DNA of 64,000 nucleotides from Nemertoderma westbladi (lineage: Eukaryota > Animalia > Xenacoelomorpha). The translations under genes were made by a program, and so were the position numbers. A model generated the notes under the pieces. The model saw only the letters and a program-made list of their open reading frames with translations, was not told where the DNA came from and did no database searches. Position 1 is the first letter of the stretch. Each line of letters starts with the position of its first letter. Shown piece after piece: positions 9,788-45,164 of the stretch. The stretch is taken from positions 1,486 through 65,485 of the forward strand of contig JAUCBJ010008729.1 of NCBI GenBank assembly GCA_032718475.1, written 5' to 3'.

Positions 9788-9800
9788 CCGCTCCCAGAAA
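9788..9800 (-). other. Short polypurine tract of element A (minus strand TTTCTGGGAGCGG|TG)
   Basis: Purine-rich run abutting the 3' LTR, with the same GGAGCGG core as in element B. Confidence 0.7.
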
Positions 9801-17500: not shown

Positions 17501-19093
17501 TCGGTTGTCATCAGCAGTGGTGCGCACTACTGAACAGGCGTTCGAGGGGCTCAAGATGATTCCGAAAGCCTGGATGGTCATCCAGTACTCCACAGGTTTT
17601 TGGCTGAGCTCTCCTTCAGGCCACCACAGAAATCGCAGGCTGTCTCGATCCCTATCCAGCGCCTTAACTTGTAAGAACATGCCTTCTATATCCGAGGCGA
17701 AGGCGATCGAATATTGCCGTAATCTTAAGAGTATTCCCAACAAGGATTGGAGTAAGTTGGGTCCCGGCAACAACTCCGAGTTAAGGGATTGGCCCATGTA
17801 AAGGGCGGAGCCGTCAAATACTACCCGAACTTCGTTGGGTTTACTGGGTTTGGGAACGTAATGATGGGTTAAATAATACGTTCTTCTCAGTGTTTCTTCC
17901 GGTACTCGCTCCGCATATCCCTTATTGATAAATTTCTTCAGCTGGGTCTTGTACATCTCTTTAGCTGAAGCATTTGCCGTAAGGCGTCGATGTAATTCCG
18001 CGATTCTTTTCTCCGCCAAGGGTCGGTTATTTATAAAATTAGGTTCTCGCTTTTGGAATGGCAGACCAATCTCATACCTCCCTTGATCTCTAAGGAAACG
18101 TGTAGTCGTTGCCTGGATCTGCTTGGCTCTTTCCTCCTCGACCGATAGTGCTTTGTCGTAGGAATTAGGCTCTATAGCTTCTTGAGTAAAGAATCTTACG
18201 GCGTGTTCGTCGCGAATCCTAGCGTTATGTCGATCTATCACCTCATTTAGCTCATCATTGTAGTTGAGTTGTCCGCCATGATAGATGAGATGGCAAAGGT
18301 GCACTTGGTTTCTCCAAGCTTCACTTTCAGTGAGGAGGTCTATCGTATTTTCCTCGTCAAATAGTTGGGTAATATCGTCGTTATCTGAGGAGTATGGTGT
18401 TCCCTCAGGTGTGATTTCTCCCTCACTGATTTCTTCTTCCCATTCACTCATCTGATGGATTTGTTCAGTGGGTAATCTTTCCATGAGCGTTCTACGGGAA
18501 GGTCCAGTGAAGTACCAACCTACTCTAGTTCTTCCCGCATAGGTTTGCAATGGTTGCGGTCGAGCAGGTCGTTTCTCTAATGTCTCAAGCGCCTCATGCG
18601 CATATTGGCCGATTAATATTTGCACCCCTGGGTAGTCGGTGTTGAATCTAGGGATATTATGTTGCTGGGTAAAATCGTCTTCATCCCAGTTGTAAGGTTC
18701 TACTTGGCTGGTAGCAAAGTTCTTTATCGCCACCATTTTTACTGACCTTATGCTGTGTTCTCCTAGTTCGTCTTGGGGAGTGGACAACGCGCCTACATAG
18801 TAGTCTGTAGCTACTGTAGATTTCCAAACCTGCATAATTCCTGAAAGGTTCAACTTAGTTCGGAACTTTGGTTGTCCTGCAAAGATGTCTTCGGCTAGTT
18901 CTTTATCAATGAACGTTCCTGTGCTGCCGGAGTCCAGGAGTGCGTTGACTATAAAACTCTTACTTAATCCATGGACTCTTAGCTGAACTACGGGGAATTC
19001 CCGGATTCCGACATTGGAAGTTGGTGATTTCCAAGATGGTTGTCGGTCAGGAATAACCGGGTGCGCTTCGTTATCGGTTTCTTTCAGTCTCAT
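14569..19093 (-). pseudogene. Element A pol (aspartic protease, RT, RNase H, integrase), broken into 3 frames
   Basis: LLDSGS; RVVFDGS, DIEGMFLQ, YMDD, FDPLG; FGDAS, RAEL, WTD; H-x4-H..C-x2-C, GVDLFGP, SDKGTNF, GGSWERL. Confidence 0.93.
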
Positions 19094-22000: not shown

Positions 22001-22725
22001 ATTCTTTCTCGAACTTGATAAAGCAGCTCTCCCTGCTCTTGAGGTCCTTGGGGTTGTTGAAACAGTTGTTCCTCTAATCGCTCCAGAGAGCTGAAGAATC
22101 CTTGTACATATCCGGCTGCCGACCTCTTCCACACAGCTGGATCTCTAGTGTCCTTTACCACTCCCATCCTGTATAAGTCTTCCCAGGCAGCTTCCGATAA
22201 GTTAAACGGGAGTCTGGGTCCGCGGAAGTTCCATTGCGTCTCGACAATAGACTTTAGTTCCTCCATTGTGTATCCCGCATAACTGTCCTTGGTCGATCGC
22301 TTACTTCTCGCCCAATTGATTTGATGTTCCTCCACCGCAATCAATACCCTAGTGAGTACGGCTTCAGGAAGAATGAGAAGTGGATCTGAATAAACTGCAT
22401 CTGCCATCTTTGCTCCGCGCTCGGGTGTCAACTCTACAGTATCTGAACTACTGGAGCTATCGGGCCGCTGAGAAATAAGTTCTCGGTTCGAGTGTTGCTG
22501 CTGTTTAACAGCTGCCTCTTGGTCCCGCTTGACTTGAGCCCGAGTGCCTATGATAGACCTACGGTGCTTTACTAGCCTAGGGTCTCATACTACTACTGAA
22601 GGGATGACTTTTCTTACAGTAGGAGGGGACTTGAACTTTGGTCTCAAATGTTCGGTACTCCTGTCGGAGTCGCAGACTGTTGTTTCTAGGAGACTATCTG
22701 ATAGAGTTTGCTTTGTGTCAGCCAT
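19071..22725 (-). pseudogene. Element A gag (coiled coil, Pao-type capsid region, triple zinc knuckle), with stops and frameshifts
   Basis: ATG at 22725 is in frame with 21685..22431. KFNGD..W...EKLRFL..L...YG; C-x2-C-x3-H-x4-C, CYNC...GH....C and C..Y...HH.LLH knuckles. Confidence 0.88.
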
Positions 22726-24686
22726 GTTTGATTGTACAGTTGAATGCCTACTACTATAATGACAGTTAAAGCAAGTCTAGTAAATCAGTATCAACTGTTA
22801 GCCTAGTAATTAATTACCGATATCGTTACTCAATGTAACGCGATATATATATAATATATTAGAATACCGGTATACACTTATAGTATATATATAAGTATTA
22901 TTACAGACTAGGGTTTGTCACAGAATACCGGTATATAATTTCAGCATAAATATATAGAAATATATATAATAAGCCTACCGTGAATACCGGTATACAGCAT
23001 ACACTTATAGTATATATAAGTATGATTATAGAATAGAATTAATTACAGAATACCGGTATATAATTTCAGCTTAAATTTATAGAAATAAATATAATAAGCC
23101 TATCGTAAATACCGGTAATGTCAATTATTTTACGATGCCTAAATTTTTGAATTTTAGGGTTACTTTCCTTTACTTTATTACTGTTATTAAGCAGTAGTCC
23201 AACTGATGTTAAGACCTAATTGATGTATAACAGGCCTACTATTTTATAAATTGGTTTGAGTTGATTTATAATATATATATAACCGTATAATGGGTTTTTG
23301 ACAATATTTGAAATAAATATTATTATTTCTGGTAAGGAGTCACTACACAGAAGCTGAACGCTCTCAGTGGAGTGCTACTTGTTGGACACTAAAACAAATA
23401 ATTATACTTGACTAAGTTACTTATTACTACAAATTACATACAATTACTGGGCGAGATTTCAATCTCTAATAAACACAAAAATTACACGTACAAATTTTAG
23501 GGTAATTTTACAGGAAATCTAGAAACCAGCCTAACAAGGGGTTAGAATTTCTGGTTATTACAACGGACAGGATACTACGGTATTTGAAAATAATTAAGCA
23601 GTAGTAAATAAATTGCGTTGTCCAGATAAGAAAATACCACCATCTGACGACTTATAGTCTTTAGCTGTACAGCTCTATAAGTACTACGTTATGTACCCGG
23701 AGTGTTCTTACCTAGAAGTTAATTACCGCAGCCAACCAGAGCTAACGTGCCTATTAACCACTTTACAACACAAATATACTGCCTACACACTAATTACCTT
23801 CGGAAAGTACTGTACACTAAACCCTAAAGTAGGTACAAGTACTTATACAACAAATAACCAGCAGTTAAAAATACTTGTACAGCTAAAAGAACCACGGTAT
23901 CTGCTGGAGTGACTAGAGCATAAAATCACCAGTCTTTACCTACGCCAAGCAGCCCTGATGTAGTACCGGGGTTAATTTAACTATAACGGTATATATAACA
24001 AGCACAATTACTGTAGGAATAAACTTGGGGAGTTATGTATGTTGCGAATACTCGTATATACTCTGAATAATAAATATTACGCTATCCGTGCAGACTACAC
24101 AAACAAAATACAAACTAAACGCTGGCAGACTACTATCAAGCCTAAATAAACTACAGTATATGCAGACTCCGGAATGGTTAGTTAGTATGCGTTCTAACCG
24201 AGTAGTACGACTTATTCTTTCGGGGGGGATTTACCTTACAGCACTGGATGCCCCCACCTTCCTAACTAGTACTTTATTGGACATACACTCTACACACACT
24301 GCAATCTCTTCAGACTCAACAACAGTCAGACAACAATCCAGCCTACAAATTATTTGTACAATTTGAGCGGGCTTACACGCCTTCTGCTCAATATTACACT
24401 TACAAATAAATAAAACTGACAGAAATAAATAAGCTCTAAAAGAAACAAGGGGTGTACAGTCCCTAATCTCTTAAACAGCCTACCAATATACAATATCACA
24501 ATCGAAATAATACTGGTACCGGTAAGTACCGGTTCGGGTGGCTAGGTAGTTAGGCCTACAGGTTACCATCCGACCGGTACAGTCGAATTTATTGCCTACG
24601 TGCAATCAAAACAAAAAATCTATTATTGTTCTTACCAGAACAATAGACAACTATATTTTTGTTTCTAAAATTTGAAAATCTATTAT

Positions 24687-24972
24687 TGTTCGCGCTTTCA
24701 GACCTTTAGCAGTTTAACCTGCCAATTTTAGGTGTCCTCTTGTTTATAAATCGACTTTAGCCTATAACAACTATTTAATGCACATGAAGTAACATTAGCC
24801 GAAGCCAGTCTATGCGCGATCATTCACCCACAGTTAAGGGAGACTGGATTCGGATGCTTTGAAAGGATTGCGGTGCAGACCTACGGTATTATTCGATTGA
24901 TAGTTACTATATAATCTCTGACAATGTTATTCACTTTCGGGGAAATATTAACAGTTCCTTTAGGACGTGGCG
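24687..24972 (-). repeat. 5' LTR of element A, internal-side segment (split by B)
   Basis: Matches 8647-8932 apart from a few substitutions; ends at TSD TGGCG. Confidence 0.95.
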
Positions 24973-27169
24973 TGATAAACAACCGCGACCTCTATACTAA
25001 CAGCAGAACCGTTGAACAGACAAATACCCGTATACCTCTCTGCCAACCTAATGACTGTAATGAGCTCTCGCCTAACCAATAACAGAATAAGACACAAAGA
25101 CTGCACTACTGTTAAGTAAAGGGGATCAGGAGCGTGATATTACTAAATTGTAAGGGTTGCTAAATACAAAACCGCTACTTATCGTTAGATGGCGCTAATC
25201 TGCCGTACGCTAATATATTTACTAAATTTACACAACTCCTGCAAAATCGCTTGTTCCTTTCTCTACCGATCGCTCGATAGAGAGCTAACTGTTCGAATCT
25301 ATGAGCCACGCGGGAATAACCAAAACAATAAACCCGAGTCGGCTCCCTAAGCTTACTTAAGACGAGTGCGAGAGGCCTTGCACTCAGAGTATTCTTACGC
25401 CTAATTTTATCACTATTAAAGCACGCTATTACCTACGTCTTTCTAATCGCGAATACTGGAGGTTCCCTAACGTAATGTGTGAATGCGAGAATATTTAAAT
25501 ATCAAAACGGTACAGTATCTGTTCCTACGTAAATAACATCACTCCGGGTCTAAAATCGCCTGCAGCTGGCTTTAGACCAGCAAATTACTAGCGTATCGTG
25601 CGTACCGAATAGTACAATCTAGCTGATTGCCCGCTAATGCAAATAACCGCTCAGCGTGAATAGTTTACAGTACTCTAATTATTACTTTAGCTACTCTCCG
25701 CTATGCTGCGTACTAATTCTTAATTTTTACTAATTAATTACAGTCACAAATATTTAACAGCGTACTAATTACTAAGAGTTCCAGAATACGTAATTCTAAT
25801 TTATTACGCAACAAGTTTCGCTAGTAATAGCCTAAATTTGCCGTATTACTTTGACCTAATCAGTAACCAATTATTGTAACTAAGAAATAGAAATCAATCA
25901 AAGAAAAGGGGGGCGCCTACCTAAACATTCATAATCATAGGCACACTTCAATAACACACCAATCAGCGTTCACAGTTCGCAATTATGCAGTTAACTACTG
26001 TATAGTCCACAATTATGCGACTCACTATTCGTACTCTACATTTAACGTTATACGCTCTAATACGCTGTAACACGTGCAGGCCTCTCCCGGGTACATATGG
26101 GACTCCTAACTAACCTGATTCCTGCCCCCTAATACTAAATAGAGACGAAACCTGGATCATCAGCCCCCTAATTACTGTACCGGCGATAGGTCTGCCCGTT
26201 GCACGCAAGTTGCCCGACCCCCGCCAGCGTTGCCTGCCTTTGAATCCTCTGCTCTCCCTTAGTCGCTCAACCCCCCGATGTGCCCACCGCCCACTGGCGC
26301 CTTAGCCCTCCATTATGCTAATAGCTACCGTAGCGGCGCATGCAAATCACAAAGTCTGACAGTCTCAGGAATCCCTTAGGATTATTGCGCAGAAAAGAAT
26401 CACATAGAACCATTAATCAAAAGGTAGAAATCATAGTTCAGTTGTAATTAGCAGTAATCGACAGGAATTAATTGAGAAACACAAGCAAGAGTAATCGCAC
26501 TAGCAAATCATTCCAAGAAATTAATCAAATTAGCAAATTGCAGAAAAATACAAGTATCAAGAAAAACAGTAAGACAGGTGCTAGGGCTAGGTGTCATGTG
26601 ATGATAGGCTCTACCGGCACACCGCCAATTTATAGGTGATCCAGATGGGGTGATGCAATAGGGTGACTCAATCGCTTTCTTATTGGCTCTCCAGTCCGTG
26701 CTAGCACTAGACCAACCTGGAAGCAGCTAGTCCAATAAGGAGGCCGGATTGTAGCCCTATTTGCTCCCCTTCCTCGAATTATTACCATATATGGTAATGG
26801 TTCACGTCTCTGGCTGCTGAATGGCCAGGACAGCGTCCCTATATGCTAGCCCTACTAAAGCTAATATCAGCAAGCACGGAATCCAGGGTCCGAATAAACT
26901 TACCCTGGAACTATCTACATATAACCTAATACAAAATTACGTAGGTAGGGCTACATACTATACAAAATGGATGGATTCAAATATATGGGTGTTTCGATTT
27001 CCCTATCTAAATACCACTGCGTTATTATGCCTTATCTAAAATATCATGCTGCACAACGGACTAATATTACATACAGTATAACGGACTAATATTGCATACT
27101 GCATAACGGACTAATATTGCATACTGCATGATGACTAATATTATGGATACAGCGCCATATACCGTAACA
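24973..27169 (-). repeat. 3' LTR of element B (2197 bp)
   Basis: Near-identical to 42089-44304 (about 3 substitutions and indels of 6, 12 and 1 bp seen). Short ACGGACTAATATT tandem repeats at 27056-27143. Confidence 0.97.
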
Positions 27170-27181
27170 CCGCTCCAAGGG
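27170..27181 (-). other. Short polypurine tract of element B (minus strand CCCTTGGAGCGG|TG)
   Basis: Abuts the 3' LTR; GGAGCGG core shared with A. Confidence 0.7.
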
Positions 27182-28045
27182 AAATCATACAATGTTTCCC
27201 TCCAATTGTAGAAGAGTATAAGGTGATGTATACAAAACAAAATAAATTTCTTCCAACCAATCTAAATAACATAATAATTCTACTATTTACAAATATTGCC
27301 ATAGATATTGCATAATGAATTTACATACAAATTAAAATTACAAAATATTGTTTCTCGTTCGTTCTACATAATGATTACTACATACAAAATTAAATTACAA
27401 AATATTACTTCCTTTATTTACTTACAAATTGACGATCTACATATTGAAATGAAACATGGCTAGGACAATGTCCCCCATTTCCCATCTCAAATTAACAAGC
27501 AATATTAACAAGATAAACTAAATATAAACGTATTTGAGGCTAAATTTTTAACTAAATTGCATTAAAGGCCGATAATCAAATTAAATATAAAATACGTAAT
27601 AATTTCTTTCATTTTCGGACTTTACTTAATTTCTTATAAAAAACGCAAATCATCTTGGTTTGATGATTGCTAGGACAAGTGAAAGGAGTAAGCCAAACCC
27701 GCAGGTTTGTCTCCCCAATCACTTCCTTCGCCTCTCTCATAATATAAATTCAAATAATTATGCAACTAGTGTATATGAGTCTAGTCGGATATTTCTAAAA
27801 TGCTACAATATACATCAGAGCGACGATCATGTATATATCTAGAGTCTGTCGCCCTGTGATACGATGCATTAACAACCCGCTCCTGGGTTCTTCGGGCTCG
27901 CTCCTCTCTTTCGCCCTCTGCCCAGATACACCAGTCGTCCTCTAGTCGACTCTGTTGACGGCGTCCGTGAGGCGTCACTCCCCGGAACCGGCGACGACGT
28001 TCCCTGAGCCCCGACAGACTCCCGGCTCGCACTTCTCCCTCGGCC

Positions 28046-31000
28046 TCATCCCAATTGTCGCGCTCCCGTGGTCGCTTCCGCCAACTCTTCCTTCTGCAGT
28101 TGCACACGCGCTTTCTCAGACGCCCCCTGCGCCTTGCGCTGCAACCGCTGCGCTTCTATAATCGAATGGTAGTGGTCGTCCTTGACTTGACGCTTGTCTT
28201 GGACCTCTCCTCCTGGTTCTTTCCGCGAGCCTCGCGCTCCAGCGGTCGTCGCTGTGGTCGCTGCGATCCTTTGCTCTCGTATCCTCTCAGCGGTCAATGA
28301 ACCCACTGGCACATGAGTCAACAAGAATTCGTTGCGGTACTGTATAGCCGCCATCCTCCAATCTCCTCGCGCGCGTACCACCTTTCTAGTCTCCGTAAAT
28401 ACACCCTTCGTAATGCGATCGCAAATGGCAACGAAGTTCCATGTGTACTTATTGTCCATGTTCAATTGTCTGAAGTACTCTCGAACTACGATAACTCCAG
28501 TGTTCTGTGGAAGGTCTTGAGCAGTTAGGATGAGCTCCTGATATTGTGGTAGCGATTGTAAATATGGCTCGTACGCAACATGCGATGGGTCTACCGCCCA
28601 AAACCCATATCCCGCTTTAAATGGTAACCAACGCATCTGCGCTTGGATATGGTAATCGGCCACACCCTCCCACTTATCTAACATCTCCCGAAGTAGGTTA
28701 GCGCTATGGTTTTGAAAGGAATCATCTCGTAGCTGACATCTTGCGCTACGATGTCCCTTTACCCCGCAATATTCGCATTGAGAAATGAAGACGGTGCACG
28801 TATGAAACGAATGGTCGGTCTCATTACACCAACGGCAGACCTTATGCGCCGCCTCTATTACCGCGTCGCACGACTTTAGATTGTGCCTTGTGCTGCCGCA
28901 CAATTTGCACCTACGCGCTTGTGGAAACCAGGCCCTCTCGTATATGAGGTCTCCAATCGGTTTCGCACTTCCTTCTTTCCCAATGTCTAATACGATGTCG
29001 TCCTCTCCAGTCAACGGTTGTCGATCCGGAACAAAGTAAACATCCTCGCCCTTATCCTCTATCTCCAATATTTCCTCCCGCGTTCGTTTCGGATATGTCT
29101 TCTCCACCGGGAGATCTACTCCGAACACCTCTACTAAAGTCTCCGGCCAGCCCTCCTTAACAGGTTTATCAGCCTCCGAGTGGAAGGGAGTACCAAACCC
29201 GCGGGTTTGATTCCCGAACCACTTCTCCAAAGCTTCTGGCGTCGGATATTCCATCGACGGTCGGTCTCCCAAATCTCCGATATTCTGTCGATATATTCCT
29301 TCGAATATCGCTAATCCTCTCCTCACCATCGACGTATTCTCTAACGATTGGTTGAAGAACGGGGTTAAGAAACGCTTCATCACGTCGGATTGGATTCCCC
29401 CTTTCGAGCGAACGTATTGATCTCCTCCGAATACCAATGGATGACGCTTCAAAACTCGCGCAACGATATCCGCTAATAAACAAGTCACCGTGTTCGACTC
29501 AAGCACCAAATAATATTGTAGCGACGCACGGGGTGGCGCGCAAATGTTCCAATACACTAACGCTTGCCGCTTGAAGTGGGATTTGAACTCCGCTCCCGGT
29601 GGCGTGTTGTATTCGCCGTACGCCTCCTCGTACTTCTTTTGCGTCTTTAACTTAAAGTCCCAATTATACAACAAGTGTGCTATAAAGCCCATACCAGTCT
29701 TGGCAGAGTTGGGATACTCCCTATAAATTCCAATATCCTGTGCCCATAGCAACAATAGCTTGGTGTCGACAAACGGTCTAGGCAATCTATCTTCCAGATC
29801 AGTCATGGCGTTGAAGTCGCTCTCCAAATCGCTCTGGACTCCCGATCCCACCTTGACGTAATCTTGGTTGAGAATAGCCTCTCTAACTTTCTTGGGTAAC
29901 ATCCTGGCGTCGATACGCTCCGCTCCGTGCATACCTCCTCGCCTGCATACCTCCAAAATCTGTTCCCTAGGATCCTTTCCCTTCCGATATTGTGTCGTTA
30001 TGATGGGCTCCGGTCTCTCTCGATCCGCCCTCACACGCATAAACACATGAGTCACACCATCGGCCGCACGAATCTGAATACACTTGCTGGTCAAGCATTC
30101 TTGATGGGACCCTCCTTCATTGTCGTAGAACATCACCCTCCAATCTTGCAGTGATTCCTCCGTTTTCCTCCACTGACGCTGAATCTCATCTGATGGGGTC
30201 CACATGCGCTCGATCGCCTTGTGGTCATCATATCGGGTATAAGAACCCTTCCTCCTCAGCCACGTCTGGTCTACCTCCTCGTCGTCTGGGAATGTAGCCA
30301 CCGCGACCCATACCTTGATGTACTTATCCAACCATCCGAATAACTTACTCTCCTTCCCCGGAGCTCCAATCTTATCCAACGTGTCGTAATCTGTGATCTG
30401 CATTGGGACATCACGCAAGAACTTCGCGCATAAAACTTCCCGTAAACAGTCAACGTTCCAATGGTCCGCCATTCTTACCATCGGCAAGAATCGTATCGCT
30501 TCTCGCGACTCCGGATGATCTACTAATATCGCAGGTTCGGTGCCGTCGGAATAATACACCGGTCCGGGTTGAGATACGACCTGTGGAACAAATCCGGTCA
30601 CTCTCCTCGTCTCCTCTTGATGTCTATCCGCGGTCTTATTATACTCCGCTATCCTGTTCTCAAATAACTCCTTCGCCTTCGCCGCTCGCTCCTCCTGCCG
30701 CAACGCGTCTATGTCGTCCTGATGCTCAGGCGTGAGGCTTCTCACTCGGTGAGGTGAAGTAAACGTAGTCCAGGGACTCGAGAGCTCCAAACCCGCGGGT
30801 TTGGTACCCGAGTCCCGCGCCGCTTCGCGCCGCGCCTCTAGATCCTTGTAGGCTCGGTATAGCGAAATGGCCGCTGCCGTCTCTATCAAACTGGGTGTCG
30901 AACAGGGTTTAATCTCCGTATACGGATCTAATGTCGTAACGGTCGGCGTAATGGGTCTCGGAGGTCGCTTTCCGCTGAAGTCGATACTGATCATCGGGTT

Positions 31001-31576
31001 GCTCATCGGGTAACCTCCCTCGTTATATCTAAGGAATTGGTGAGCTGGACATCGCGTTAATATCGGTTCCGGATGTTGCTCGTCTAATCGGTCGGGAATC
31101 GCCACGTCCTGTTTATTCATGCATTCACCACACTTGTAGAAGAGCTTGTATACGCTGAAGACTTTCGGCGTCTCCTGATCCTCGCCTCGAGTCCTCCGAT
31201 ACAGATGCATTCCGTCGAACTGGTCTCGGACTGCAGGTAGAGGCTCCTCATGTCGTAAATACATATTCATATGGTATAGTCGTGCGATTTCCTCGTCCGG
31301 ATCTGCGCTAATGTCGCACACGTCCAAAGCAAAGTCGTAGGGATACCGCGTGCGATACTCTTTCCGCAAGACTTCCATCCGGTCCCCCAATGCTCTCATT
31401 CTTTCTCTCCGTAATTCTTTATCATAACTTGGTTTATACTTCCCGTTCAGCTCCATCACGGACCGCCCATGGTAGTAAACGTTAGAGTCTTTACATCCCG
31501 GTCGCGCGAATGGTAGCTCCGCCTTTTCTCTGGCAGTAAATCCTCTGCGCGGTTGCGCTCTAATATCCCTCTCCAT
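28046..31576 (-). CDS. Element B accessory ORF3, 1176 aa, three tandem CCHC zinc knuckles, no Env hallmarks; function unknown
   Basis: Open 3.5-kb frame between pol and the 3' LTR. CKLCGSTRHNLKSC, CRWCNETDHSFHTC and CEYCGVKGHRSARC are all C-x2-C-x4-H-x4-C. No N-terminal hydrophobic signal or C-terminal TM anchor is evident. Confidence 0.88.
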   Translation of the reverse strand: MERDIRAQPRRGFTAREKAELPFARPGCKDSNVYYHGRSVMELNGKYKPSYDKELRRERMRALGDRMEVLRKEYRTRYPYDFALDVCDISADPDEEIARLYHMNMYLRHEEPLPAVRDQFDGMHLYRRTRGEDQETPKVFSVYKLFYKCGECMNKQDVAIPDRLDEQHPEPILTRCPAHQFLRYNEGGYPMSNPMISIDFSGKRPPRPITPTVTTLDPYTEIKPCSTPSLIETAAAISLYRAYKDLEARREAARDSGTKPAGLELSSPWTTFTSPHRVRSLTPEHQDDIDALRQEERAAKAKELFENRIAEYNKTADRHQEETRRVTGFVPQVVSQPGPVYYSDGTEPAILVDHPESREAIRFLPMVRMADHWNVDCLREVLCAKFLRDVPMQITDYDTLDKIGAPGKESKLFGWLDKYIKVWVAVATFPDDEEVDQTWLRRKGSYTRYDDHKAIERMWTPSDEIQRQWRKTEESLQDWRVMFYDNEGGSHQECLTSKCIQIRAADGVTHVFMRVRADRERPEPIITTQYRKGKDPREQILEVCRRGGMHGAERIDARMLPKKVREAILNQDYVKVGSGVQSDLESDFNAMTDLEDRLPRPFVDTKLLLLWAQDIGIYREYPNSAKTGMGFIAHLLYNWDFKLKTQKKYEEAYGEYNTPPGAEFKSHFKRQALVYWNICAPPRASLQYYLVLESNTVTCLLADIVARVLKRHPLVFGGDQYVRSKGGIQSDVMKRFLTPFFNQSLENTSMVRRGLAIFEGIYRQNIGDLGDRPSMEYPTPEALEKWFGNQTRGFGTPFHSEADKPVKEGWPETLVEVFGVDLPVEKTYPKRTREEILEIEDKGEDVYFVPDRQPLTGEDDIVLDIGKEGSAKPIGDLIYERAWFPQARRCKLCGSTRHNLKSCDAVIEAAHKVCRWCNETDHSFHTCTVFISQCEYCGVKGHRSARCQLRDDSFQNHSANLLREMLDKWEGVADYHIQAQMRWLPFKAGYGFWAVDPSHVAYEPYLQSLPQYQELILTAQDLPQNTGVIVVREYFRQLNMDNKYTWNFVAICDRITKGVFTETRKVVRARGDWRMAAIQYRNEFLLTHVPVGSLTAERIREQRIAATTATTAGARGSRKEPGGEVQDKRQVKDDHYHSIIEAQRLQRKAQGASEKARVQLQKEELAEATTGARQLG

Positions 31577-32356
31577 TATATTACGCGTATATACATATAT
31601 ATATATCCCAATAAGTGCCGTTACGTAACCAACTACACTGTGGGTAAATCAGTTAGATGTCGCCGAAGGACAGACCTCCCGAACCCCCCCCGCCTTCCAG
31701 CAGTTCAGGTTCGACTCTCTAGATCCCGTCTCTTCCTAACTAACTATCCTCTAACCTATTCCCATGCATAGCGCAAAAACTTTGGAGATAAACTGGCCGT
31801 GACCAACTCACTTTTTGATGCCCAAACTACTCCCATTACTCCTACTAAACTACAGTAGTTAGAAAGGACCATAGTCACAATACTCGACTATACCAAACCC
31901 ACAGGTTTGATAATCGAACATCACACATCCTGCAAACTACTGAGTGGGGTCCATGTACGCCTCTGGTGCTACTAACCTTTAGCACCTTAGTTGCACTGTT
32001 GGCACCAATCTGTGGAAGTTGCTAAACTCAATTTACACTCCTACGTAATATAGCCATCACCATGGTTTCTAAATGCTATTTTCCAGGCTTCACGACTTTT
32101 ACTTTTCAAATTACTGTTTTCTATAGACGAATTTTTCTATAGACGGAAACTAAAACGCGTCTATACACAGCGTCTGGAATTGTCTTGGGTTCACTTCTAA
32201 TTTTTAAAATTTTCTAATTTTCCAAAAATTTTGAAAATAAAATTTTGTTTTGATACCCACTAGACAAAACTCAACGCAAATCACCACAACCCCGCTCCTA
32301 TGCATTTCCTTGTATTTGCATACGAGGAATGCATACGAAGTGAGTTGCGTCCAACA

Positions 32357-35300: not shown

Positions 35301-37330
35301 GTGTCCTTGGACACCAATCCGTCGTCCATGTAGAAGTTTCTCAAGATGGACTCGATAACCTCTACTGGGTACTTACCAATCTGGGCTGTTGCCGTTTTCT
35401 TTAGAACAAACAGCGTGCCATTCGGACTATCGCGGGCGCCAAATATCCTAACGTACATTTGGTATGTAACCACTGGGCCGGATAAGTCTTCATTCTCGTA
35501 CCAGAGAAAGCGAAGGCTATCCTGGTCTGCCTTACAGGCTCTTACCTGGTGGAACATCGCCTCGATGTCACAAGTAAATGCGAATCGTCGCTGTCTAAAA
35601 CGCAACAGTATTCCTATCAAATAGTTATTCAGGTTGGGACCATCCATCAACTCTGAATTCAGGGACATACCTCTATAGACTGCTGCGCAGTCGTTGACTA
35701 CTCGGACTTTGTCTGGCTTGTCAGGGTGAGTCACATAGTGGTGTGGAAGGTAATAAGTCTGGTCTGTCACTAAGTCAGGGTCCTCTACCTTCCCAGCAAA
35801 TCCCTTGGCGAAATAGTTGTTGATCTGGGCGCAATACTTCTCCCTAATGTCCGGATTCCTTAACAACCGAGCCCTTACTCCGTTCAATCTTTTCAAGGCT
35901 AAGTTGTAGTTGTTCTCCAACTTAGGTGGTTGTCGACGCCACAACATTCCAACTTCAAAATGTCCAGTCGGTAGCAGACGTATGGTGTCTTCCATCATCT
36001 CCAGCGACCGTTTTTCATCAGTAGACATGGCTAGGTCATATCCACCGGGTTCCATTGCGTCCCTATCCAGCCATTCGACGGTTCTGGCTCCTGTCTCGAG
36101 GTCCTGGCGTATCAATTCCTTCTGTAATTCCTCCTCACTGTATTGGAAAATGTCGAGGTCTCGATATTTAGCCACTTGACCCTCCACTATGTCTGTATAA
36201 GTCAAAACGTTAGTCAAATAGGTAGCGTGGGCCGCTGAACCAGACCCACGGGTCTGATAACAGTAGTCCTCGGGTTCACTATCTGTCCGGTCGTTATGAA
36301 GTGGTTCCGACAACCTAACATTATCGGGAATCAACTCCTCGTCCGACTCGCTAAAGTCACTATAGTGGTCAATACAGGTTCTCCTAAACTCGTCTATGTC
36401 TGGTGGTTCTACTAACGGTGGTTGAGTTATAGGCTGTAATTCGTCGTATCTATTCATTGGCTTGTCGCCACCTGTAAACTCATAAGACATGGGTACTCGT
36501 GTATACCAACCTAATATAGTCCTATGGGCATGTGGTCCATTGACATGCGGCTCAGCTGGTCTCGTTTCCCATATCTGGTGTGCGATCAGCTGTTCTGCAC
36601 CAATCAACATAGAAACATTCCTATAACCTACCTGGTGTCTGGGTATCCTGAGCTTGTCAAAATACTCCTGTGCTATGGGACTCATCGGCGGCACCTTACC
36701 TAACTGCCTGCCGAATCCCTTCATAGCTAGACACTTAAATCCGTCCAATGGCAAAGCTTTCCGTTCTTGTCGAGTGTGTTGGTCTCTCGGTAGTAGGGAA
36801 TCTAGTTCTACCGAAATTCTGTGTCCCTTGAGGTCTCCTACCCCATGCATAGACTTCAACTCTATTTGGATCTCCTCGGCGTCCTGGAAGCTAGAAACAG
36901 CTCTCGCCACTTCCTCGTCGATATAAGATAATGTGGACGCAGTGTCCAACATCACATATATTCGCTTCGATCCCTTATCGCCAGTGAGTTTCACCGGAAT
37001 CACGCTAAATATTTCCGACGTGGCCGATGATAAATACGTCCGCGCGCTGGTCGATGAACTATCCGCGGTGAAACCTTGGCAGGTCACTTCTCTCGCGCTC
37101 GACTCGCCATCCTCGTCCGACGAACCTGGTTGGTAACCATCGTCCTGGATGCCGGTGTACGTATTTCTCCTTATCGATACGGGTTCTTTGCTCCCCTTCC
37201 TGTGAGGATTTCGCTGTAAGTAACGGTCCGTCGGGGTGTGGAAATCCGCATGTAGCAACTTGTAGTCTGCCGCATTCCATGCATCCGTCCTTGCTGTTCG
37301 GGCACTGCCGCCGTACATGACCTGGCGCAA
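32357..37330 (-). CDS. Element B pol (protease, RT, RNase H, integrase)
   Basis: MLDTAS; RVVNDC, DIEAMFHQ, FGARDSP, YMDD; FSDAS, RAELQAA, WTD; H-x4-H..C-x2-C, GVDCFGP, SDKGTNF, GGSWERL. Confidence 0.96.
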   Translation of the reverse strand: MRQVMYGGSARTARTDAWNAADYKLLHADFHTPTDRYLQRNPHRKGSKEPVSIRRNTYTGIQDDGYQPGSSDEDGESSAREVTCQGFTADSSSTSARTYLSSATSEIFSVIPVKLTGDKGSKRIYVMLDTASTLSYIDEEVARAVSSFQDAEEIQIELKSMHGVGDLKGHRISVELDSLLPRDQHTRQERKALPLDGFKCLAMKGFGRQLGKVPPMSPIAQEYFDKLRIPRHQVGYRNVSMLIGAEQLIAHQIWETRPAEPHVNGPHAHRTILGWYTRVPMSYEFTGGDKPMNRYDELQPITQPPLVEPPDIDEFRRTCIDHYSDFSESDEELIPDNVRLSEPLHNDRTDSEPEDYCYQTRGSGSAAHATYLTNVLTYTDIVEGQVAKYRDLDIFQYSEEELQKELIRQDLETGARTVEWLDRDAMEPGGYDLAMSTDEKRSLEMMEDTIRLLPTGHFEVGMLWRRQPPKLENNYNLALKRLNGVRARLLRNPDIREKYCAQINNYFAKGFAGKVEDPDLVTDQTYYLPHHYVTHPDKPDKVRVVNDCAAVYRGMSLNSELMDGPNLNNYLIGILLRFRQRRFAFTCDIEAMFHQVRACKADQDSLRFLWYENEDLSGPVVTYQMYVRIFGARDSPNGTLFVLKKTATAQIGKYPVEVIESILRNFYMDDGLVSKDTAEQAIEVAHGLQECLATGGFPLTKFTTNSEALLESFPVKDRGSGDIELGVEPIPMARVLGLAWNPNSDKFQVRVRFEPSSPDKVLTKRICLSTLSRLFDPMNFISPVILQARACMRKIWLSDVEWDEPISPIHAKQWREWEAELHLLKNIDVPRSYFPNQLVFPADLELHMFSDASDTGFGMVAYLRREVSQDKFETAFVTSRSKTMPVKYMTVPRAELQAAVVSVEVSKQITEELDTTLTLFYWTDASLVLVYIAADNIALKTFVANRRAQIVDFSTKEQWRHCPGVLNPADITSRGAMPAEFCQEESQEFWLHGPDFLTRTQEHWPERLKIVTNPMPEDAEVKVEKVSKSKSKAKLKSLERPEESLERPEESLERPGDLSDQQTYVTTRSGRVSYDIKPPLQTKPESQLVSDGQKMTDTMEPLVSKPAGLDSKLPLVSGQPSLALESCSIYDKLLNSSASWLTICKRTAWLSRYISYLCLKHSKHLREPLSTNSERIRKLKQPLTEDEIDQAELKHLKHYQMCAFPKEFHLLSAQRPVLYKPLRKWSPLIHKGLICHRSRIQTVDINSQFRFPVIIPSHPTELQRAILWDIHKRLHHAGKLHCLSAARQRFILLQPSRAVGTMYDACLVCKRVNARVLEQEMAELPEARVHAYDPPFTNTGVDCFGPIEAKSGRLTHKRWGLLLTCMASRAIHIERVADMSTKSLLLALKRFMARRGLVKAFYSDKGTNFVGGNSELNAAHKAAQNKEISAALLPQRVEWRFNTPESPWRGGSWERLVRSVKQAIAKTLPVNKQLTDDELVTAFIEIEHTLNSRPIAMLPDGVALTPNHLLMQSPAFLVPASEPISADLYSRKSWKVTQLVAYTFWEYWREYYLPTISTRTKWYKTVRSLQRGDYVLITEPIVKRKYWETGVILHTHPDVHNIVRTVTVKIRCKCPHPKKCKTNGLHTLDRPVQDIVLLEETRIKTGDYNLSPASKQS

Positions 37331-40300
37331 GACATGCCCAACAGGTGTCCAACGTCCGCACTTGAACTCTTCTCTGTTCCGAATTTAATTCTTTGAACCG
37401 TCTGCAACTATCTAACTTATGGTCGTCAGATCTTACCTCCTTTAGTAAACAGTATTGGCAACCTACAAATCCATCCGGCAACTCCTGTTGCTTTAACCTA
37501 GGTCTATCTAACCGCTCACCTGACCATACTCGCGAGTCTGATCTAAAGGCTGGGGTATTCGAATTATATCTGTCTACTGAGTTAAATGTCACAGTGGTCC
37601 TGTCATCGTCAAAACTTACCATAGACTTACCGGTAACAGGTTTAGACTCCCTCATATTCTCCTCTGAGAAGTTTGATTTCATCTCTGCTACTGCGTCTGT
37701 GGCTATCATGTCATGAATATGCTGAAGTGTCAATACTTTACCTTGGCCCTCCAACTTATTCTCTAATTTGCGCCATTTCTGTCGATAACGCATATTTAGA
37801 CGTCTTATTACGCTTTTCAAAACTTCGGCGTGATCACCATGATGAGGTAGATTCACCGTCCTCAGGATGTCCAATGCGTTCGAAATAGCGTTCGCTAAGT
37901 TCAAAAGCTCTAACGGAGTTGTAATCCTTCCGCCCTTACCCAAGTCTTCTACTATCGACTGCGCCATCTTGGTTTTATTCCCGTAGATGTCGCTAAGCGT
38001 CTTCATCGCTAACTCAAATGCTCTCTCGTTGCCGACGAAGTTATCAGCAATGGCTCTAGGTTCTCGATGGAGCATCTGAAGCAAATAGTTGAACTTCTCG
38101 TTGGGAGTAAAGGTGCTGTTGGTTAGCTGCTCGTCGACATAGGTTTTAAAGGTCCTCCAGTGCTTATGGTTGCCCATAAACTTCTGGGGTTGTTGCGTCG
38201 GCAGTCCTTGCCTAGCAGCAAACTTACCTATGTCCCTAAGGGTTGCGTCGTTCCGGGTTAACAAATGGTTTAGTTCCGCAGGGTTGTTAAGTCTGGTCCT
38301 TTCCCGGTGGTTCCAACTTACCTGCTCCGCGTCGGTCCTTCTTTCCTTATAGTTTCGGGACTTCTGACGTCTCATTTCTTCCTCTTCATCGCTCGACTCG
38401 GTGTCAGTCCTTAACGCTCGCGATGGTTTGCGCGCCGAGGCCCTGATCCAAGCCTCCTCTATAAATTTCTCGGCTGAGTTTTCGAAGTTGGGATTAGAGA
38501 TGTTCGGGACAGGCGTCCTTACCTGAGGTCTATGTGGTATAGTTTCCTCCGATATGCGTACTCGTTGACTAGGCTGGACTTTGTCTAACTCAGGTCTGCT
38601 AGGATTAGAATTACTTCTTACCTGGGCTGCTTCCTTTAACCGTAGGTTGCTAAGCATGTCCGTTATAGGTTGGATGTGTGGCGATATAGCTTGCGCTAAA
38701 CTAGCACTCAACTCATCCCTCGTAATAAATTCCTGGCTAGGGTTCTGTTGTATAGTCGGCTCTATCTGAGTAATCCGCTGTCTCTCATATGATCCCTCTT
38801 CCGGTTTAACCCGGAAGTTCTCCGTCGAACTGGGTCGGCGCTCCGTCCGCGTATTCCAAACCCGCGGGTTCGGTTCGCCCAATACTCGGCCCGTCGGAGT
38901 TTCTTCTCTAAATTCTTCGTTGTCGCGTTCGGTGTATAGTGGTGCGGCGTTCCGATGACGTAGATCCTGCGCGATAGGTGAAGCACTAATACCAACTGGC
39001 GTGCGATATGTAGAGAATGGTTTAACGATCCGTGTACTCGTAATAGCTGGACCGGGTATAGGAATTTTGGTCGTCGTCGACTCGCGTATGGTCGGAGTTC
39101 TCGCTTCCTGTTCGGCCTTCTGCAGTGCGAACAGTTCTCGCAACTCGGTCCCTACACTCGCCCCACATTCTTCGATCATTCGCATCCCCTTCTCGGCGAT
39201 TTCGTTCGCCTTCCTAGTCCGTTCTTCGCTCTCTAAACTTAATCTCGCACTTTCCAACTGCGCCAGTTTACGTTCTTCTTCTTCCCTCGCTCGTCTCGCT
39301 GCGCCCTCTTCTTCCACTCGCGCCTTTTCTTCATACAATGCGCGTCTTCTTTTCTCGATCTCGAGTTCGCGTTCCTTGCGTCCGCGTTCGAGTTGAAGCT
39401 CGCGCTCCTTCTGTTCACGATCGAGTTTCTTGCGCTCGCGTTCGGCTTGGAGTTCGCGTTTCTTCGCTTCCTGTTCGCGTTCGAGTTGGAGTTCGCGTTT
39501 CTTCGCTTCCCGTTCGCATTCAAGTTGGAGTTCGCGTTTCTTCGCTTCCCGTTCGCATTCGAGTTGGAGTTCGCGTTCTCTCTGTTCGCATTCGAGTTCC
39601 TCGCGTTCGCGCTCGGCTTGGAGTTCACGTTCCCTTTGCTCGCGTTCCGCTCGCTCGCGCTTACTTATCTCTTCCAACTCTCGTAACTCTGCGTCCAACT
39701 TACGTGTGCGCTTCCGTTCCCTTTCGGCTTCCTTCCGTGCTTCCTGTGCACGCAAAACTTCCGCCTGCTGTTCGTCTAGTCGGCGTCTTCTCTCCTCCGC
39801 CGAGTTGTGAGAAACAAGGGATCTAGCACATATTACCTTACCTCGCGCGTGACTAACCTGGGAATCGCCGCTGTCTCTAGATGCGTCGTCGGGTGGAGTC
39901 AACGTCCTCTGTTGAATGTTCTCCGTCGTCGGTAGCACCTGACCCGGTACCACCACTCCATTCTGCATCAGCCAGCTAGTAACTTCCCTCTGATAACGGC
40001 GCTCCTCTTTATCCTGCGTCTCTTCTCGCTCCACTAAGTCTCTTAACTCTGCGTCACTCACCTGAGTCGCCTGCGCTTGTGATGCCCATAGCAGCCAGTT
40101 CTCTGTCCTAACTCGTCGGAATCGCTCCGATAACTCGCGGTGCTCTAACAAGGCTGCTAAAACCCTGTCGTAAATCCTCGTCGCCACGTCGCTCGACTGA
40201 GACTCCACTGCCTTCTTCGCTAGGACTGCAAGCTCCTCCGTCTGCTTGAATAACGCTGAGTTATTCCTCTTCTAATCTCTGCTAACTCTACCCTCCCGAT

Positions 40301-40807
40301 GTTCGCTGAGTCGGCTAACATTTTCCTTACCTTGTCCGCCGTCCGGGTTATATGTCCGGCATGCGCGCGAAGTTTCTTCTTCATCGCAGTGTCGAACTCT
40401 CTATCACTTACCTGACTTACGCTCGGTGGACTTGAAGGATTATTTCGGGAACTACGGGTACTCCTTACAGCCGCTGGGACCACGGCACTTACCATACCCA
40501 CAGGTCTGGAAACCGGGCTCCGGGCTCTCGCTTCTGCTACACTACCCTCCTTATCACTCACCTCTGGTCGGGTTGCTGTACAATCCTTCCTTACAGTAGC
40601 GGTAGGGGATCCTAATACTATTACTTGAGGTTGTTGTTCTTCCTCACTAGTCACTGTCTCGTCCTCCTGTTCACTTACGTCAGCGTCGCTCGCTGCGTCG
40701 TCATAGTCGGCATTGTCGTCAACAGTAATATTGACGCTATCGTCAGTCGGCGGTCCAGCCGCCGTCTCGTAGCTGTCCTCTAGTGCCTCTTTGTCTGAGA
40801 CACTCAT
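37059..40807 (-). CDS. Element B gag (frames 40220..40807 and 37059..40208; coiled coil with 11-aa repeats, capsid region, zinc knuckles)
   Basis: KKRELQLECERE repeats; KFMG...W..F...EKFNYL..L...YG; CQYC..H, CWAC..GH....C and CMEC knuckles. Confidence 0.9.
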
Positions 40808-42088
40808 AGTCTAAATAATGTTTGCCTTCCGGCAAAATTATCTCGCAAAAGTTCGAGATATTATTATAATTTAACCGAAATACGGTCAAATTAATTGTCA
40901 AATAATCAGTTGGTCCAAAATGTCAAATAAATTCGCAATGCAATATTGTGAATTTAATGGGGTATATAGTTATAGCAAATACTAGCACAATATTTAAACA
41001 AAAATATTATTATATAGCTACTATATAGCATTAAATACTGGTATAGCACAAAATAACTCTGAATCTAATACAAAATATTCAAAATATACTTGCCACCCGA
41101 ATATTTCTAATTTTATATATATAGCTCTAATCAACGTAATTTTAATTTCAAATATTATATGTATCCACTAGCGCGTGGCTACATCTTCGGGTTGCGACTC
41201 TCTCTAACTCTCTCTCTAACTTGAGCGATTCAAAAAACCATGGCCGGCTAAACCTAAATATCCTAACTAATAAATTGAGTTCAGCTTCGCAGTTAAACAA
41301 CCGATAATTTTTTACTGCTTCCACAAACACACTGGTGCCAACAGAACAACCAACCTTGTTTGCTGTGAGATTCCACGTCCGCGTCCAAAGATTCAGGCTC
41401 TCCGCTGATTGCAAACCGAACCCGCAGACCCACACGAACCCCAAACTCAGAAGTTCCGTCTTGCCATGTATCTCCAGATGGTATAAAATAACTAAGCGGT
41501 TACCTAACATACCGGTACAAAACTCTAGAATTTTACAAAATAATTTTGACCGAAACTGAATTCTCGCAAACCTAGCTAATAATTTTCAAAAACTTACTAA
41601 TTACAATTTGCCCTAAGGCCTAAGGAACTGTATTCGCAATTAGTAAAAACGCACTACCGTACATCCACTGTATGCAGTACAGTAAGTAAAACAGTACACC
41701 AACCTAACAGCCTAATGATACTGTATATGTGGTACGGCAAAACAAATGTCCCTTCTACCGTACGCAGTAACAGCAATCAGCCTAATGTACTACTGTACTA
41801 TTGTACGCAGCCAGTGAATACAGTAATCTAAACTAACAACCTAAAGGAATATGCTCAATGTCTTACCGTACGCTAGCCTATAGCCTACAGCAGACGATCA
41901 CGTGCTCTAATTTATTGCCTAATACTATGATACTACTAATCAGCCTAAGAATACACTATCGACTGCTGCAAGCAACAGCCAATAAATGCACGTGTTACTG
42001 ATACGAAGTATCAGTAATCTAAACTAACAGCCTAAGAATACTCTATTTACTGTACGCTACAGCCTACAGCAAACAGTCCACGTGTTAC

Positions 42089-44304
42089 TGATAAACAACC
42101 GCGACCTCTATACTAACAGCAGAACCGTTGAACAGACAAATACCCGTATACCTCTCTGCCAACCTAATGACTGTAATGAGCTCTCGCCTAACCAATAACA
42201 GAATAAGACACAAAGACTGCTCTACTGTTAAGTAAAGGGGATCAGGAGCGTGATATTACTAAATTGTAAGGGTTGCTAAATACAAAACCGCTACTTATCG
42301 TTAGATGGCGCTAATCTGCCGTACGCTAATATATTTACTAAATTTACACAACTCCTGCAAAATCGCTTGTTCCTTTCTCTACCGATCGCTCGATAGAGAG
42401 CTAACTGTTCGAATCTATGAGCCACGCGGGAATAACCAAAACAATAAACCCGAGTCGGCTCCCTAAGCTTACTTAAGACGAGTGCGAGAGGCCTTGCACT
42501 CAGAGTATTCTTACGCCTAATTTTATCACTATTAAAGCACGCTATTACCTACGTCTTTCTAATCGCGAATACTGGAGGTTCCCTAACGTAATGTGTGAAT
42601 GCGAGAATATTTAAATATCAAAACGGTACAGTATCTGTTCCTACGTAAATAACATCACTCCGGGTCTAAAATCGCCTGCAGCTGGCTTTAGACCAGCAAA
42701 TTACTAGCGTATCGTGCGTACCGAATAGTACAATCTAGCTGATTGCCCGCTAATGCAAATAACCGCTCAGCGTGAATAGTTTACAGTACTCTAATTATTA
42801 CTTTAGCTACTCTCCGCTATGCTGCGTACTAATTCTTAATTTTTACTAATTAATTACAGTCACAAATATTTAACAGCGTACTAATTACTAAGAGTTCCAG
42901 AATACGTAATTCTAATTTATTACGCAACAAGTTTCGCTAGTAATAGCCTAAATTTGCCGTATTACTTTGACCTAATCAGTAACCAATTATTGTAACTAAG
43001 AAATAGAAATCAATCAAAGAAAAGGGGGGCGCCTACCTAAACATTCATAATCATAGGCACACTTCAATAACACACCAATCAGCGTCAGAAATTACAGTTC
43101 GCAATTATGCAGTTAACTACTGTATAGTCCACAATTATGCGACTCACTATTCGTACTCTACATTTAACGTTGTACGCTCTAATACGCTGTAACACGTGCA
43201 GGCCTCTCCCGGGTACATATGGGACTCCTAACTAACCTGATTCCTGCCCCCTAATACTAAATAGAGACGAAACCTGGATCATCAGCCCCCTAATTACTGT
43301 ACCGGCGATAGGTCTGCCCGTTGCACGCAAGTTGCCCGACCGCAACGTTGACCCCCGCCAGCGTTGCCTGCCTTTGAATCCTCTGCTCTCCCTTAGTCGC
43401 TCAACCCCCCGATGTGCCCACCGCCCACTGGCGCCTTAGCCCTCCATTATGCTAATAGCTACCGTAGCGGCGCATGCAAATCACAAAGTCTGACAGTCTC
43501 AGGAATCCCTTAGGATTATTGCGCAGAAAAGAATCACATAGAACCATTAATCAAAAGGTAGAAATCATAGTTCAGTTGTAATTAGCAGTAATCGACAGGA
43601 ATTAATTGAGAAACACAAGCAAGAGTAATCGCACTAGCAAATCATTCCAAGAAATTAATCAAATTAGCAAATTGCAGAAAAATACAAGTATCAAGAAAAA
43701 CAGTAAGACAGGTGCTAGGGCTAGGTGTCATGTGATGATGAGGCTCTACCGGCACACCGCCAATTTATAGGTGATCCGGATGGGGTGATGCAATAGGGTG
43801 ACTCAATCGCTTTCTTATTGGCTCTCCAGTCCGTGCTAGCACTAGACCAACCTGGAAGCAGCTAGTCCAATAAGGAGGCCGGATTGTAGCCCTATTTGCT
43901 CCCCTTCCTCGAATTATTACCATATATGGTAATGGTTCACGTCTCTGGCTGCTGAATGGCCAGGACAGCGTCCCTATATGCTAGCCCTACTAAAGCTAAT
44001 ATCAGCAAGCACGGAATCCAGGGTCCGAATAAACTTACCCTGGAACTATCTACATATAACCTAATACAAAATTACGTAGGTAGGGCTACATACTATACAA
44101 AATGGATGGATTCAAATATATGGGTGTTTCGATTTCCCTATCTAAATACCACTGCGTTATTATGCCTTATCTAAAATATCATGCTGCACAACGGACTAAT
44201 ATTACATACAGTATAACGGACTAATATTGCATACTGCATAACGGACTAATATTGCATACTGCATGATGACTAATATTATGGATACAGCGCCATATACCGT
44301 AACA
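42089..44304 (-). repeat. 5' LTR of element B (2216 bp)
   Basis: Direct repeat of 24973-27169. Confidence 0.97.
43763..43821 (-). promoter_or_regulatory. Candidate LTR B promoter: CCAAT (43817-43821) and TATAAAT (43763-43769)
   Basis: Motifs and spacing are typical of a Pol II promoter; no transcript evidence. Confidence 0.45.
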
Positions 44305-44309
44305 TGGCG

Positions 44310-45164
44310 CTTTAAGTATAAAACAGAGTTATGACTTATACTAAACACAACGAGATGGCTATTGATTTTCGTAAATGGCGCATTCTTTAGGAGATGCTTT
44401 ATTATCTGTCACACTGCTGCATACGACTTCACACTGCTGCACACTGATCTGCCGACCGTCACTGAATTTGATCATATATAAGGAGGATAGCAACTGACAC
44501 ATGTAGGGATTATGAAATAGCATTTAATGCACACTAAAACCACTGTAATGTAAGTCGCAATTGCTACCGGTAACCGGTCTCTCTAACCTTTGGTAATCAA
44601 GAAGATTGGGGTTTTATGATTATTTATCGATATTCTCCAAATATAACAACATATCCATCAACATGTAACAATTAATAACCGACAGTAAATAGCAGTAAAA
44701 TAATGCGGTGAATAGGATTGAGTGAGTGCAGTTTCATCAGTCAGGCCCAGTCATAATGCATTGAGTCAGTACCGCAGTTGGTAGGTGCAGATAATAGATT
44801 TACGTTTTTATAATCAAAGCCGTCTAATGTTGGCCAAAGTCTGAAACTTCTAACACAGAAGCACAGAATAATTTCCAAGCAGTTGTTCTCGCTCAGAAAG
44901 TAAAACAAAGACCGTAATGCATTGCGCGATTTCCCGTAGGCTTCTGTGTAAGATAAAATGAAAATCGCTCTGATTGGTCGAGCGAGCCGAACAAAGAAAG
45001 TTCCACATCGACAGCAAATCAGCTGACAGATTTCGTCATCTGAACTACACTCTATTTAGAGTATTTGGCGTATTGCGGCATAAAATGGCTTGTTATGTCC
45101 GCTAAAACACCTACAGGGTACATTGCGGAGAAAATGACTGGTTATATCCGCAAAAGCTTTTACA
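44310..45164 (-). repeat. 5' LTR of element A, outer segment
   Basis: Matches 8933-9787 and is followed by TSD GCCAT. Confidence 0.95.

Follow-up and report, generated by a model that had tools for sequence, protein, structure and literature searches.

The window analysed here is a 64,000-nucleotide stretch of the Nemertoderma westbladi genome (contig JAUCBJ010008729.1, positions 1,486 to 65,485 of the forward strand; assembly GCA_032718475.1). Self-comparison and inspection of the ends revealed three BEL/Pao retrotransposons, named A, B, and C, all on the minus strand. Element A is bounded by long terminal repeats (LTRs) at 8647-9787 and 24687-45164, the latter split by element B, and carries the target-site duplication (TSD) GCCAT. 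Element B (24973-44304, 19,332 bp, TSD TGGCG) is nested in the 5' LTR of A, and contigs of public sequencing runs that cross the insertion point of B without B fit this nesting. The subject of this report is the primer-binding site (PBS) of A and B, which is complementary to a word inside the element's own LTR. The features are listed in Table 1.

Table 1. Features of elements A, B, and C (positions in the window).
Feature	Positions	Strand	Remarks
A PBS, 11 nt, offset 0 from 5' LTR end	24676..24686	-	
A LTR word complementary to PBS, 5' LTR copy	44791..44801	-	LTR position 364-374 of 1141
A LTR word, 3' LTR copy	9414..9424	-	
A PBS word, second copy in leader (+61)	24616..24626	-	preceded by GAACA
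B PBS, 10 nt, offset 0	42079..42088	-	
B LTR word, 5' LTR copy	43189..43198	-	LTR position 1107-1116 of 2216
B LTR word, 3' LTR copy	26067..26076	-	
B PBS word, second copy in leader (+91)	41987..41998	-	preceded by TATCA; 12-nt pairing with LTR word
A 3' LTR (TG...CA)	8647..9787	-	TSD GCCAT at 8642-8646
A 5' LTR, U5-side piece, below B insertion	24687..24972	-	283 matches, 3 mismatches to 3' LTR
A 5' LTR, U3-side piece, above B insertion	44305..45164	-	849 matches, 11 mismatches; TSD GCCAT at 45165-45169
A polypurine tract ending GGAGCGG, flush with 3' LTR	9788..9795	-	
A coding region	10195..22584	-	gag-pol with stops and frameshifts, then ORF3 remnant 10195-11655
B 3' LTR	24973..27169	-	TSD TGGCG at 24968-24972
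B 5' LTR, 2216 bp	42089..44304	-	2193 matches, 4 mismatches to 3' LTR; TSD TGGCG at 44305-44309
B polypurine tract ending GGAGCGG, flush with 3' LTR	27170..27177	-	
B gag-like ORF	37059..40271	-	DUF1759, Cys-His motifs
B pol ORF, open 1675 aa	32357..37384	-	Peptidase_A17, DUF5641; Integrase_H2C2 slightly below cut-off
B ORF3, 1200 aa stop to stop	28046..31648	-	three CCHC-like knuckles, without a Pfam family
C pol, closest to B	59715..63998	-	5' end beyond window, PBS not readable

The Pfam families Peptidase_A17, DUF1759, and DUF5641 scored above cut-off in both A and B, which places them in BEL/Pao. The order protease, reverse transcriptase (RT), RNase H, then integrase with Pao-type pol and gag domains, the paired LTRs, the TSD, and the polypurine tract (PPT) were all found. 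The gag, pol, and third open reading frames (ORFs) are all open in B, and its LTR pair differs at 4 of 2,197 aligned sites and by 19 nt in length; in A, gag-pol is broken. A and B are distant from each other (47% identity in the RT segment and 33-36% across longer pol segments). They have in common the PPT, which ends in GGAGCGG directly at the 3' LTR, as well as a homologous ORF3 (23% identity, E 3e-30, between 10195-11655 of A and 28046-31648 of B). A search yielded 430 pol homologs, and those listed carry PF05380. Two quick trees were made, one with 61 database proteins (every second homolog left out) and one with 73 metagenome loci. A, B, and C fell on one side of a branch with an SH-aLRT support of 99 in both of them, and the trees were composed without named reference elements of the BEL/Pao clades (Bel, Pao, Sinbad/Sailor, Suzu, Tas, Flow, and Dan). 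Close relatives of the A/B/C clade were not found, the best RT identity being 43-44%.

Read on the minus strand across the LTR edge, A runs ...GCGAACA and continues with ATAATAGATTT (24686-24676), and B runs ...TTTATCA and continues with GTAACACGTG (42088-42079). The exact pairing with the LTR word terminates at the LTR edge in both elements, after 11 nt in A and 10 nt in B, and the calculated duplex energies are -8.0 and -13.5 kcal/mol, respectively. No TGG site adjoins the 5' LTR of A or B; the first TGG in the leader lies at +50 (A) and +9 (B), and the 18-nt tRNA PBS characteristic of BEL/Pao is absent. Neither was a tRNA gene found within the window. The PBS of A and the LTR of B, as well as the PBS of B and the LTR of A, can form 5-6 nt of complementarity at most. 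A preliminary description of the window had claimed that both elements lack a TGG-initiated PBS, that each LTR contains an exact complement ending precisely at the boundary, and that the two words are unrelated while the relationship is kept. Each of these statements was reproduced, and the coordinates it gave for the words were exact. It had missed the fact that both leaders repeat an LTR-end-like CA plus the PBS word once (in B, the word copy itself is 41989-41998). The repeated stretch (24616-24631 in A and 41987-42003 in B) lies 60 nt downstream in A and 90 nt in B; it might serve as an extra site for priming or have been left behind by errors in strand transfer. By eye, a short inverted LTR-end/PBS junction at 24620-24650 of the A leader lies between the two PBS copies and could form a hairpin with either.

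Several nulls were used for the chance expectation. Among Markov-generated LTRs of order 1, 2, and 3, the word occurred in 6, 3, and 9 of 4000 for A and in 5, 4, and 13 of 4000 for B. When interior mock primer sites were taken, the same length was reached by 6 of 14,889 in A, two of which are the real copies, and by 37 of 14,909 in B. A lenient null that allowed offsets 0-5 and spliced joins gave 5/300 (A) and 4/300 (B). The chance of such a match is thus about 0.1-0.3% per element and 1-2% under the lenient null; the preliminary description had put forward a rough value of 2e-3 per element.

Covariation of the PBS and the LTR word was evident in the family of B. Seven public sequencing runs were listed, six of them with part of B, and all data were short unphased contigs; X4 may be an RNA run. 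Over 41950-42170 (221 nt; run X5 lacked coverage at the site), position 42084 was changed from G to A in 12,078 of 12,128 depth in X1 (26 contigs, 99.6%), 12,773 of 13,070 in X2 (9 contigs, 97.7%), and 12,648 of 12,648 in X3 (9 contigs, 100%). Over 41800-45250 (40 of 480 rows listed; X4 and X5 lacked coverage at the site), position 43193 was changed from C to T in 10,330 of 10,330 depth in X1 (11 contigs) and 13,256 of 13,256 in X3 (6 contigs). These two sites are partner bases at duplex position 5, where the window has G:C and the runs have A:U. Only two near-fixed differences exist in the 221 nt, the other one being at 42126. The background divergence, taken from the share of 31-mers present, is about 1.1-1.9% per site; therefore, the chance of a matching change at the partner site is about 1-2%. 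Since both changes are near fixation, their co-occurrence is unavoidable despite the unphased contigs. It can be rejected that identical contigs were wrongly mapped to the two sites, as these share 10 nt only and the variants lie 20-82 nt from the contig ends. Low-depth contigs of the B family over 41950-42090 have different PBS words at this place, with conserved flanks on either side. These contigs lack one leader repeat, and several of the PBS words resemble sense-strand splice donors right after the LTR.

A metagenome scan with a 15-protein alignment gave 78 BEL/Pao loci with 33-44% RT identity. A direct repeat was present in 31 of them, and 11 with both the 5' LTR end and the full LTR were counted; L036, with a 3' LTR truncated at 129 nt, was left out of the count for that reason. 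Spliced primers were allowed through GT[AG]AG...YAG joins. Self-complementarity of 10-15 nt at an offset of 0-4 was found in 9 of the 11 resolvable relatives, with differing letters. In two of the nine (L010 and L034) it is contiguous, and in seven (L007, L013, L015, L019, L030, L044, and L046) it spans an LTR intron with a pyrimidine-rich acceptor. In these seven, and also in L017 and L021, the PBS is complementary to the exon-exon junction across a GT-AG LTR intron of 70-165 nt. The shuffle null was 0-1/300 for each of the nine relatives, and 2 of 144 cross pairs reached 10 nt. Two of the tests that the preliminary description had proposed, covariation of the two words and retention of the complementarity in relatives, thus spoke for it. 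Counting A, B, and the 11 relatives, 11 of 13 elements have a duplex that stops at a distance of 0-4 nt from the LTR edge. In B and eight relatives, the last two bases of the putative primer are AC; in A and L007, they are AT. The PBS offset is zero in A, B, and L044, and so is the PPT spacer, whereas neither is zero in the other eight (Fisher p 0.006, calculated post hoc on rows that are not independent). That the offset tracks the spacer is expected if a cDNA end is set by the PBS site. For A and B themselves, a primer formed at a splice junction was also sought and rejected, none being found with canonical donors, and the words are contiguous there. Two further scans, one of viral contigs (3 pattern matches) and a first metagenome scan with an alignment of B and C (594 matches), yielded no confirmed case.

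The closest precedent is Tf1 of Schizosaccharomyces pombe. As described in the available part of PMC7175516, the Tf1 mRNA's initial 11 bases pair with the PBS, and the cut by RNase H falls between bases 11 and 12. From the sequence relations above, A and B most probably start reverse transcription with a word of their own RNA as well. The complementarity, the register at the LTR edge, the absent TGG, and the one compensatory change in the family of B are what is observed. The transcript would start upstream of the word, so that the word is contained in the RNA and can fold onto the PBS. By analogy with Tf1, RNase H would cut just 3' of the duplex, and RT would extend the 3'-OH into the LTR with TG first. 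Plus-strand synthesis would then copy the primer into the PBS, so that changes of the LTR word are carried over and the pair stays matched; the compensatory change could be explained in this way. In many distant relatives, splicing would assemble the word across the GT-AG LTR intron.

The Tf1 rule, by which the mRNA's first 11 nt serve as the primer, is unsupported here, since a motif scan placed TATA[AT]A at -11 from the word in A and at -571 in B. The preliminary description had rightly cautioned that the TATA boxes leave the words off the mRNA 5' end. Among the nine relatives, the motif is found at -31 in L019 alone and at -133 to -135 in L007 and L046. From these positions, we infer that the primer is internal and has a longer 5' part than the first 11 bases; a longer primer is possible because pairing is needed at its 3' end only.

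Several points weigh against self-priming or narrow its basis. The compensatory change counts as a single event, present in two samples (X1 and X2 are of the same sample), unphased on a single molecule, and it covers the family of B only and not A. If A uses its TATA at -11, the start of transcription would fall downstream of the word. Flanking duplexes of the Tf1 type of at least 9 nt were absent near the PBS of A and amounted to scattered runs of 9-12 nt in B, in a search that covered longer unbulged duplexes of unspliced RNA. Among the relatives, the site of L042, at offset 5, is of the TGG type, L027 has no match, and the boundary of L010 is TA instead of CA. The nine relatives make up about seven independent families, since L013, L015, and L046 belong to one clade, and are spread over the tree. 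Finally, a blind scan of eight more loci, for which the LTR start alone was known, gave matches in three and none of at least 11 nt in five. The three are L017 (11 nt, spliced, null 1/40), L021 (of the L013 family), and L045 (14 nt, null 5/40).

We also considered that the pairing is real and selected, with a structural or regulatory role (leader closure for packaging, splicing, translation control, or PBS guarding), while a host small RNA or a protein primes. Covariation demonstrates pairing or templating and not priming itself, and both leaders contain a second copy of the word. When the native RNA of B was folded from the word, the word was predicted to pair with a PBS copy with a probability of 0.63-0.81, and the fold favoured the second copy over the PBS at the LTR edge; the pairing as such speaks for self-priming, and the preference for the second copy counts against priming at the edge. 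In A, the word begins 2 nt after the donor-like GTAAAT. However, the fold of B is weak either way, because it is a long-range prediction on unspliced RNA whose LTR has several strong splice-like sites. A merely structural pairing also leaves the LTR-edge register in 11 of 13 elements and the link of offset and spacer unaccounted for; no TGG site adjoins either LTR, and family-specific PBS words cannot all be matched by a host primer whose sequence is fixed. This explanation is thus improbable. As for the splice-like sites, strong donor-like sites lie at -840, +51, and +684 and acceptor-like sites at -58, +203, and +974 from the word in the 2.2-kb LTR of B, which suggests a multi-intron LTR transcript.

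A host tRNA fragment or another host RNA could also be the primer, the LTR match being a by-product or chance. Half-tRNA priming exists in some Ty1/copia lineages according to the accessible text of PMC6317226, the International Committee on Taxonomy of Viruses (ICTV) gives tRNA-Arg or tRNA-Gly for the family (PMC8742986), and a TGG-type site occurs in one branch of the relatives (L042 and L047). However, a host primer would reset the PBS in each cycle and leave the LTR unchanged, whereas both have changed here. The PBS words of A and B are unrelated and each fits its own LTR alone, and the low-depth contigs add further words between conserved flanks. Priming by a host RNA is therefore very unlikely. 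In the tree, the TGG-type motifs of L042, L047, and, doubtfully, L072 fall in one other branch, and both priming modes appear, from these motifs, to coexist in BEL/Pao. TGG-type primer sites 5-9 nt after CA were noted at L042:56-80, L047:18-45, and L060:727-760.

Least probable of all is a variant of self-priming in which the self-encoded primer is donated in trans or from the 3' LTR copy (by another genomic RNA or by a short transcript of the LTR): with the TATA at -11, the word of A would be located in U3 and at the RNA 3' end only, and in both elements the first A[AT]TAAA signal comes after the word (+273 in A and +277 in B), but the TATA motifs of L019, L007, and L046 would leave the word near the transcript's 5' side in those relatives, and that of A is a motif match only. 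Taken with this variant, self-priming in A and B is held with slightly greater confidence than priming by an internal word of the same RNA.

The preliminary description had regarded the geometry as typical of Tf1/sushi elements and had proposed a self-priming BEL/Pao lineage. The first claim is right for Tf1, yet the geometry is not limited to Tf1/sushi, being also predicted in the copia TAR lineage (PMC6317226, in the part available). The second is supported, except that the trait is not confined to a small lineage and extends across distant BEL/Pao relatives. It seems somewhat probable that a large, old part of BEL/Pao dropped tRNA priming in favour of its own RNA with an internal primer, which would be spliced in many marine-invertebrate relatives.

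As far as the accessible portions of the following papers go, self-priming has been described for, or predicted in, Tf1/sushi elements, Tcn1, and the TAR lineage of copia (PMC6317226, PMC4600332, PMC5445492, PMC2864245, and PMC3601003). A and B resemble Tf1 and Tf2 of S. pombe, Tj1 of S. japonicus, Tf1/sushi elements, and Tcn1 in the LTR-adjoining PBS, the approximately 11 nt complementary to LTR-derived RNA, and the lack of a tRNA PBS (PMC7175516, PMC4600332, and 10.1101/2022.12.06.519325, each in part). Unlike Tf1, they are BEL/Pao and not Ty3/gypsy chromovirus elements, and Pfam gave no chromodomain match. The Tf1 PBS region is reported to sit in a three-duplex fold (10.1101/2022.12.06.519325, available portion), and the Tf1 primer is the first 11 nt in a 'pretzel'; A and B have no TATA at -30 and no clear pretzel. 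They also differ in that the PBS word is duplicated in their leaders and that relatives build the word across an intron. About half of the Tf1 cDNA keeps the copied PBS at its 3' end, according to the part of PMC11042837 at hand. The test used for the TAR lineage of plant Ty1/copia (Houba and Osr-1), at least 10 nt of complementarity starting 0-5 nt past the 5' LTR (PMC6317226, available text), is passed by both A and B. TAR elements are plant copia elements, and self-priming is a prediction in both cases.

The ICTV profile of Belpaoviridae (PMC8742986) describes BEL/Pao elements as tRNA-primed, as had been stated, with a PBS of 18 nt that fits tRNA-Arg or tRNA-Gly, an LTR length of 0.2-1.2 kb, and a genome length of 4.2-10 kb. 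A and B agree with it in the TG...CA LTR ends, the 5-bp TSD, the order gag-PR-RT-RH-IN (PR, protease; RH, RNase H; IN, integrase), and the PPT before the 3' LTR. In contrast, B is 19,332 bp long, has LTRs of 2.2 kb and no tRNA PBS, and carries CCHC-like knuckles in a third ORF. Most likely, A and B are BEL/Pao elements by their domains that lack a tRNA PBS and work like Tf1 outside Tf1/sushi. No paper on a self-priming BEL/Pao element was found in a search that left subscription journals and Repbase reports outside, so that its absence from print is not proven. Papers naming both Pao and self-priming use the term, in the portions available, for other groups. A word search of PMC3118150, PMC554778, and PMC6238403 found no discussion of a PBS or tRNA, and the accessible parts of PMC3286476, PMC8220671, and PMC13524379 contain nothing on BEL/Pao self-priming.

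If true, self-priming would extend from Ty3/gypsy and one predicted copia lineage to a third LTR superfamily, in animals. It would contradict a defining line of the ICTV profile, whose statement on tRNA priming would be valid for some branches only. The elements would be freed from control via host tRNAs and tRNA fragments, and annotation tools based on a tRNA PBS would probably miss or mislabel them. The PBS-LTR complementarity is a direct sequence test applicable to any genome. An intron-built primer, as the relatives suggest, would link splicing with the first step of transposition, and splicing of the LTR intron would gate reverse transcription in many relatives.

ORF3 belongs to no Pfam family and had no match among 4,216 candidates. 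A further search gave six weak matches, unnamed or 'hypothetical', none at or below 1e-10, and the best Atlas score of 0.78 is a mere lead. In C, a second LTR was not found within the window, and the ORF3 profile had no match in its 3' region. Two PPT-like GGGGCGG sites lie downstream of the C pol (59641 and 58011, minus strand), each followed by TA and not TG.

Outside the three elements, a broken long interspersed nuclear element (LINE) with endonuclease and RT pieces occupies 1134-6577 on the minus strand, and a second RT fragment lies at 53887-55053 on the plus strand. The nearest database LINE proteins show 35-44% identity, across roughly one quarter of the query length. An ORF at 45106-45903 (plus strand) by the 5' LTR of A has a DUF6451 match below cut-off. 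Four tandem arrays were observed, at 7521-8290 (period 23, 32 copies), 50861-51232 (period 21, 18 copies), 52189-52630 (period 36, 12 copies), and 55654-56474 (period 44, 19 copies).

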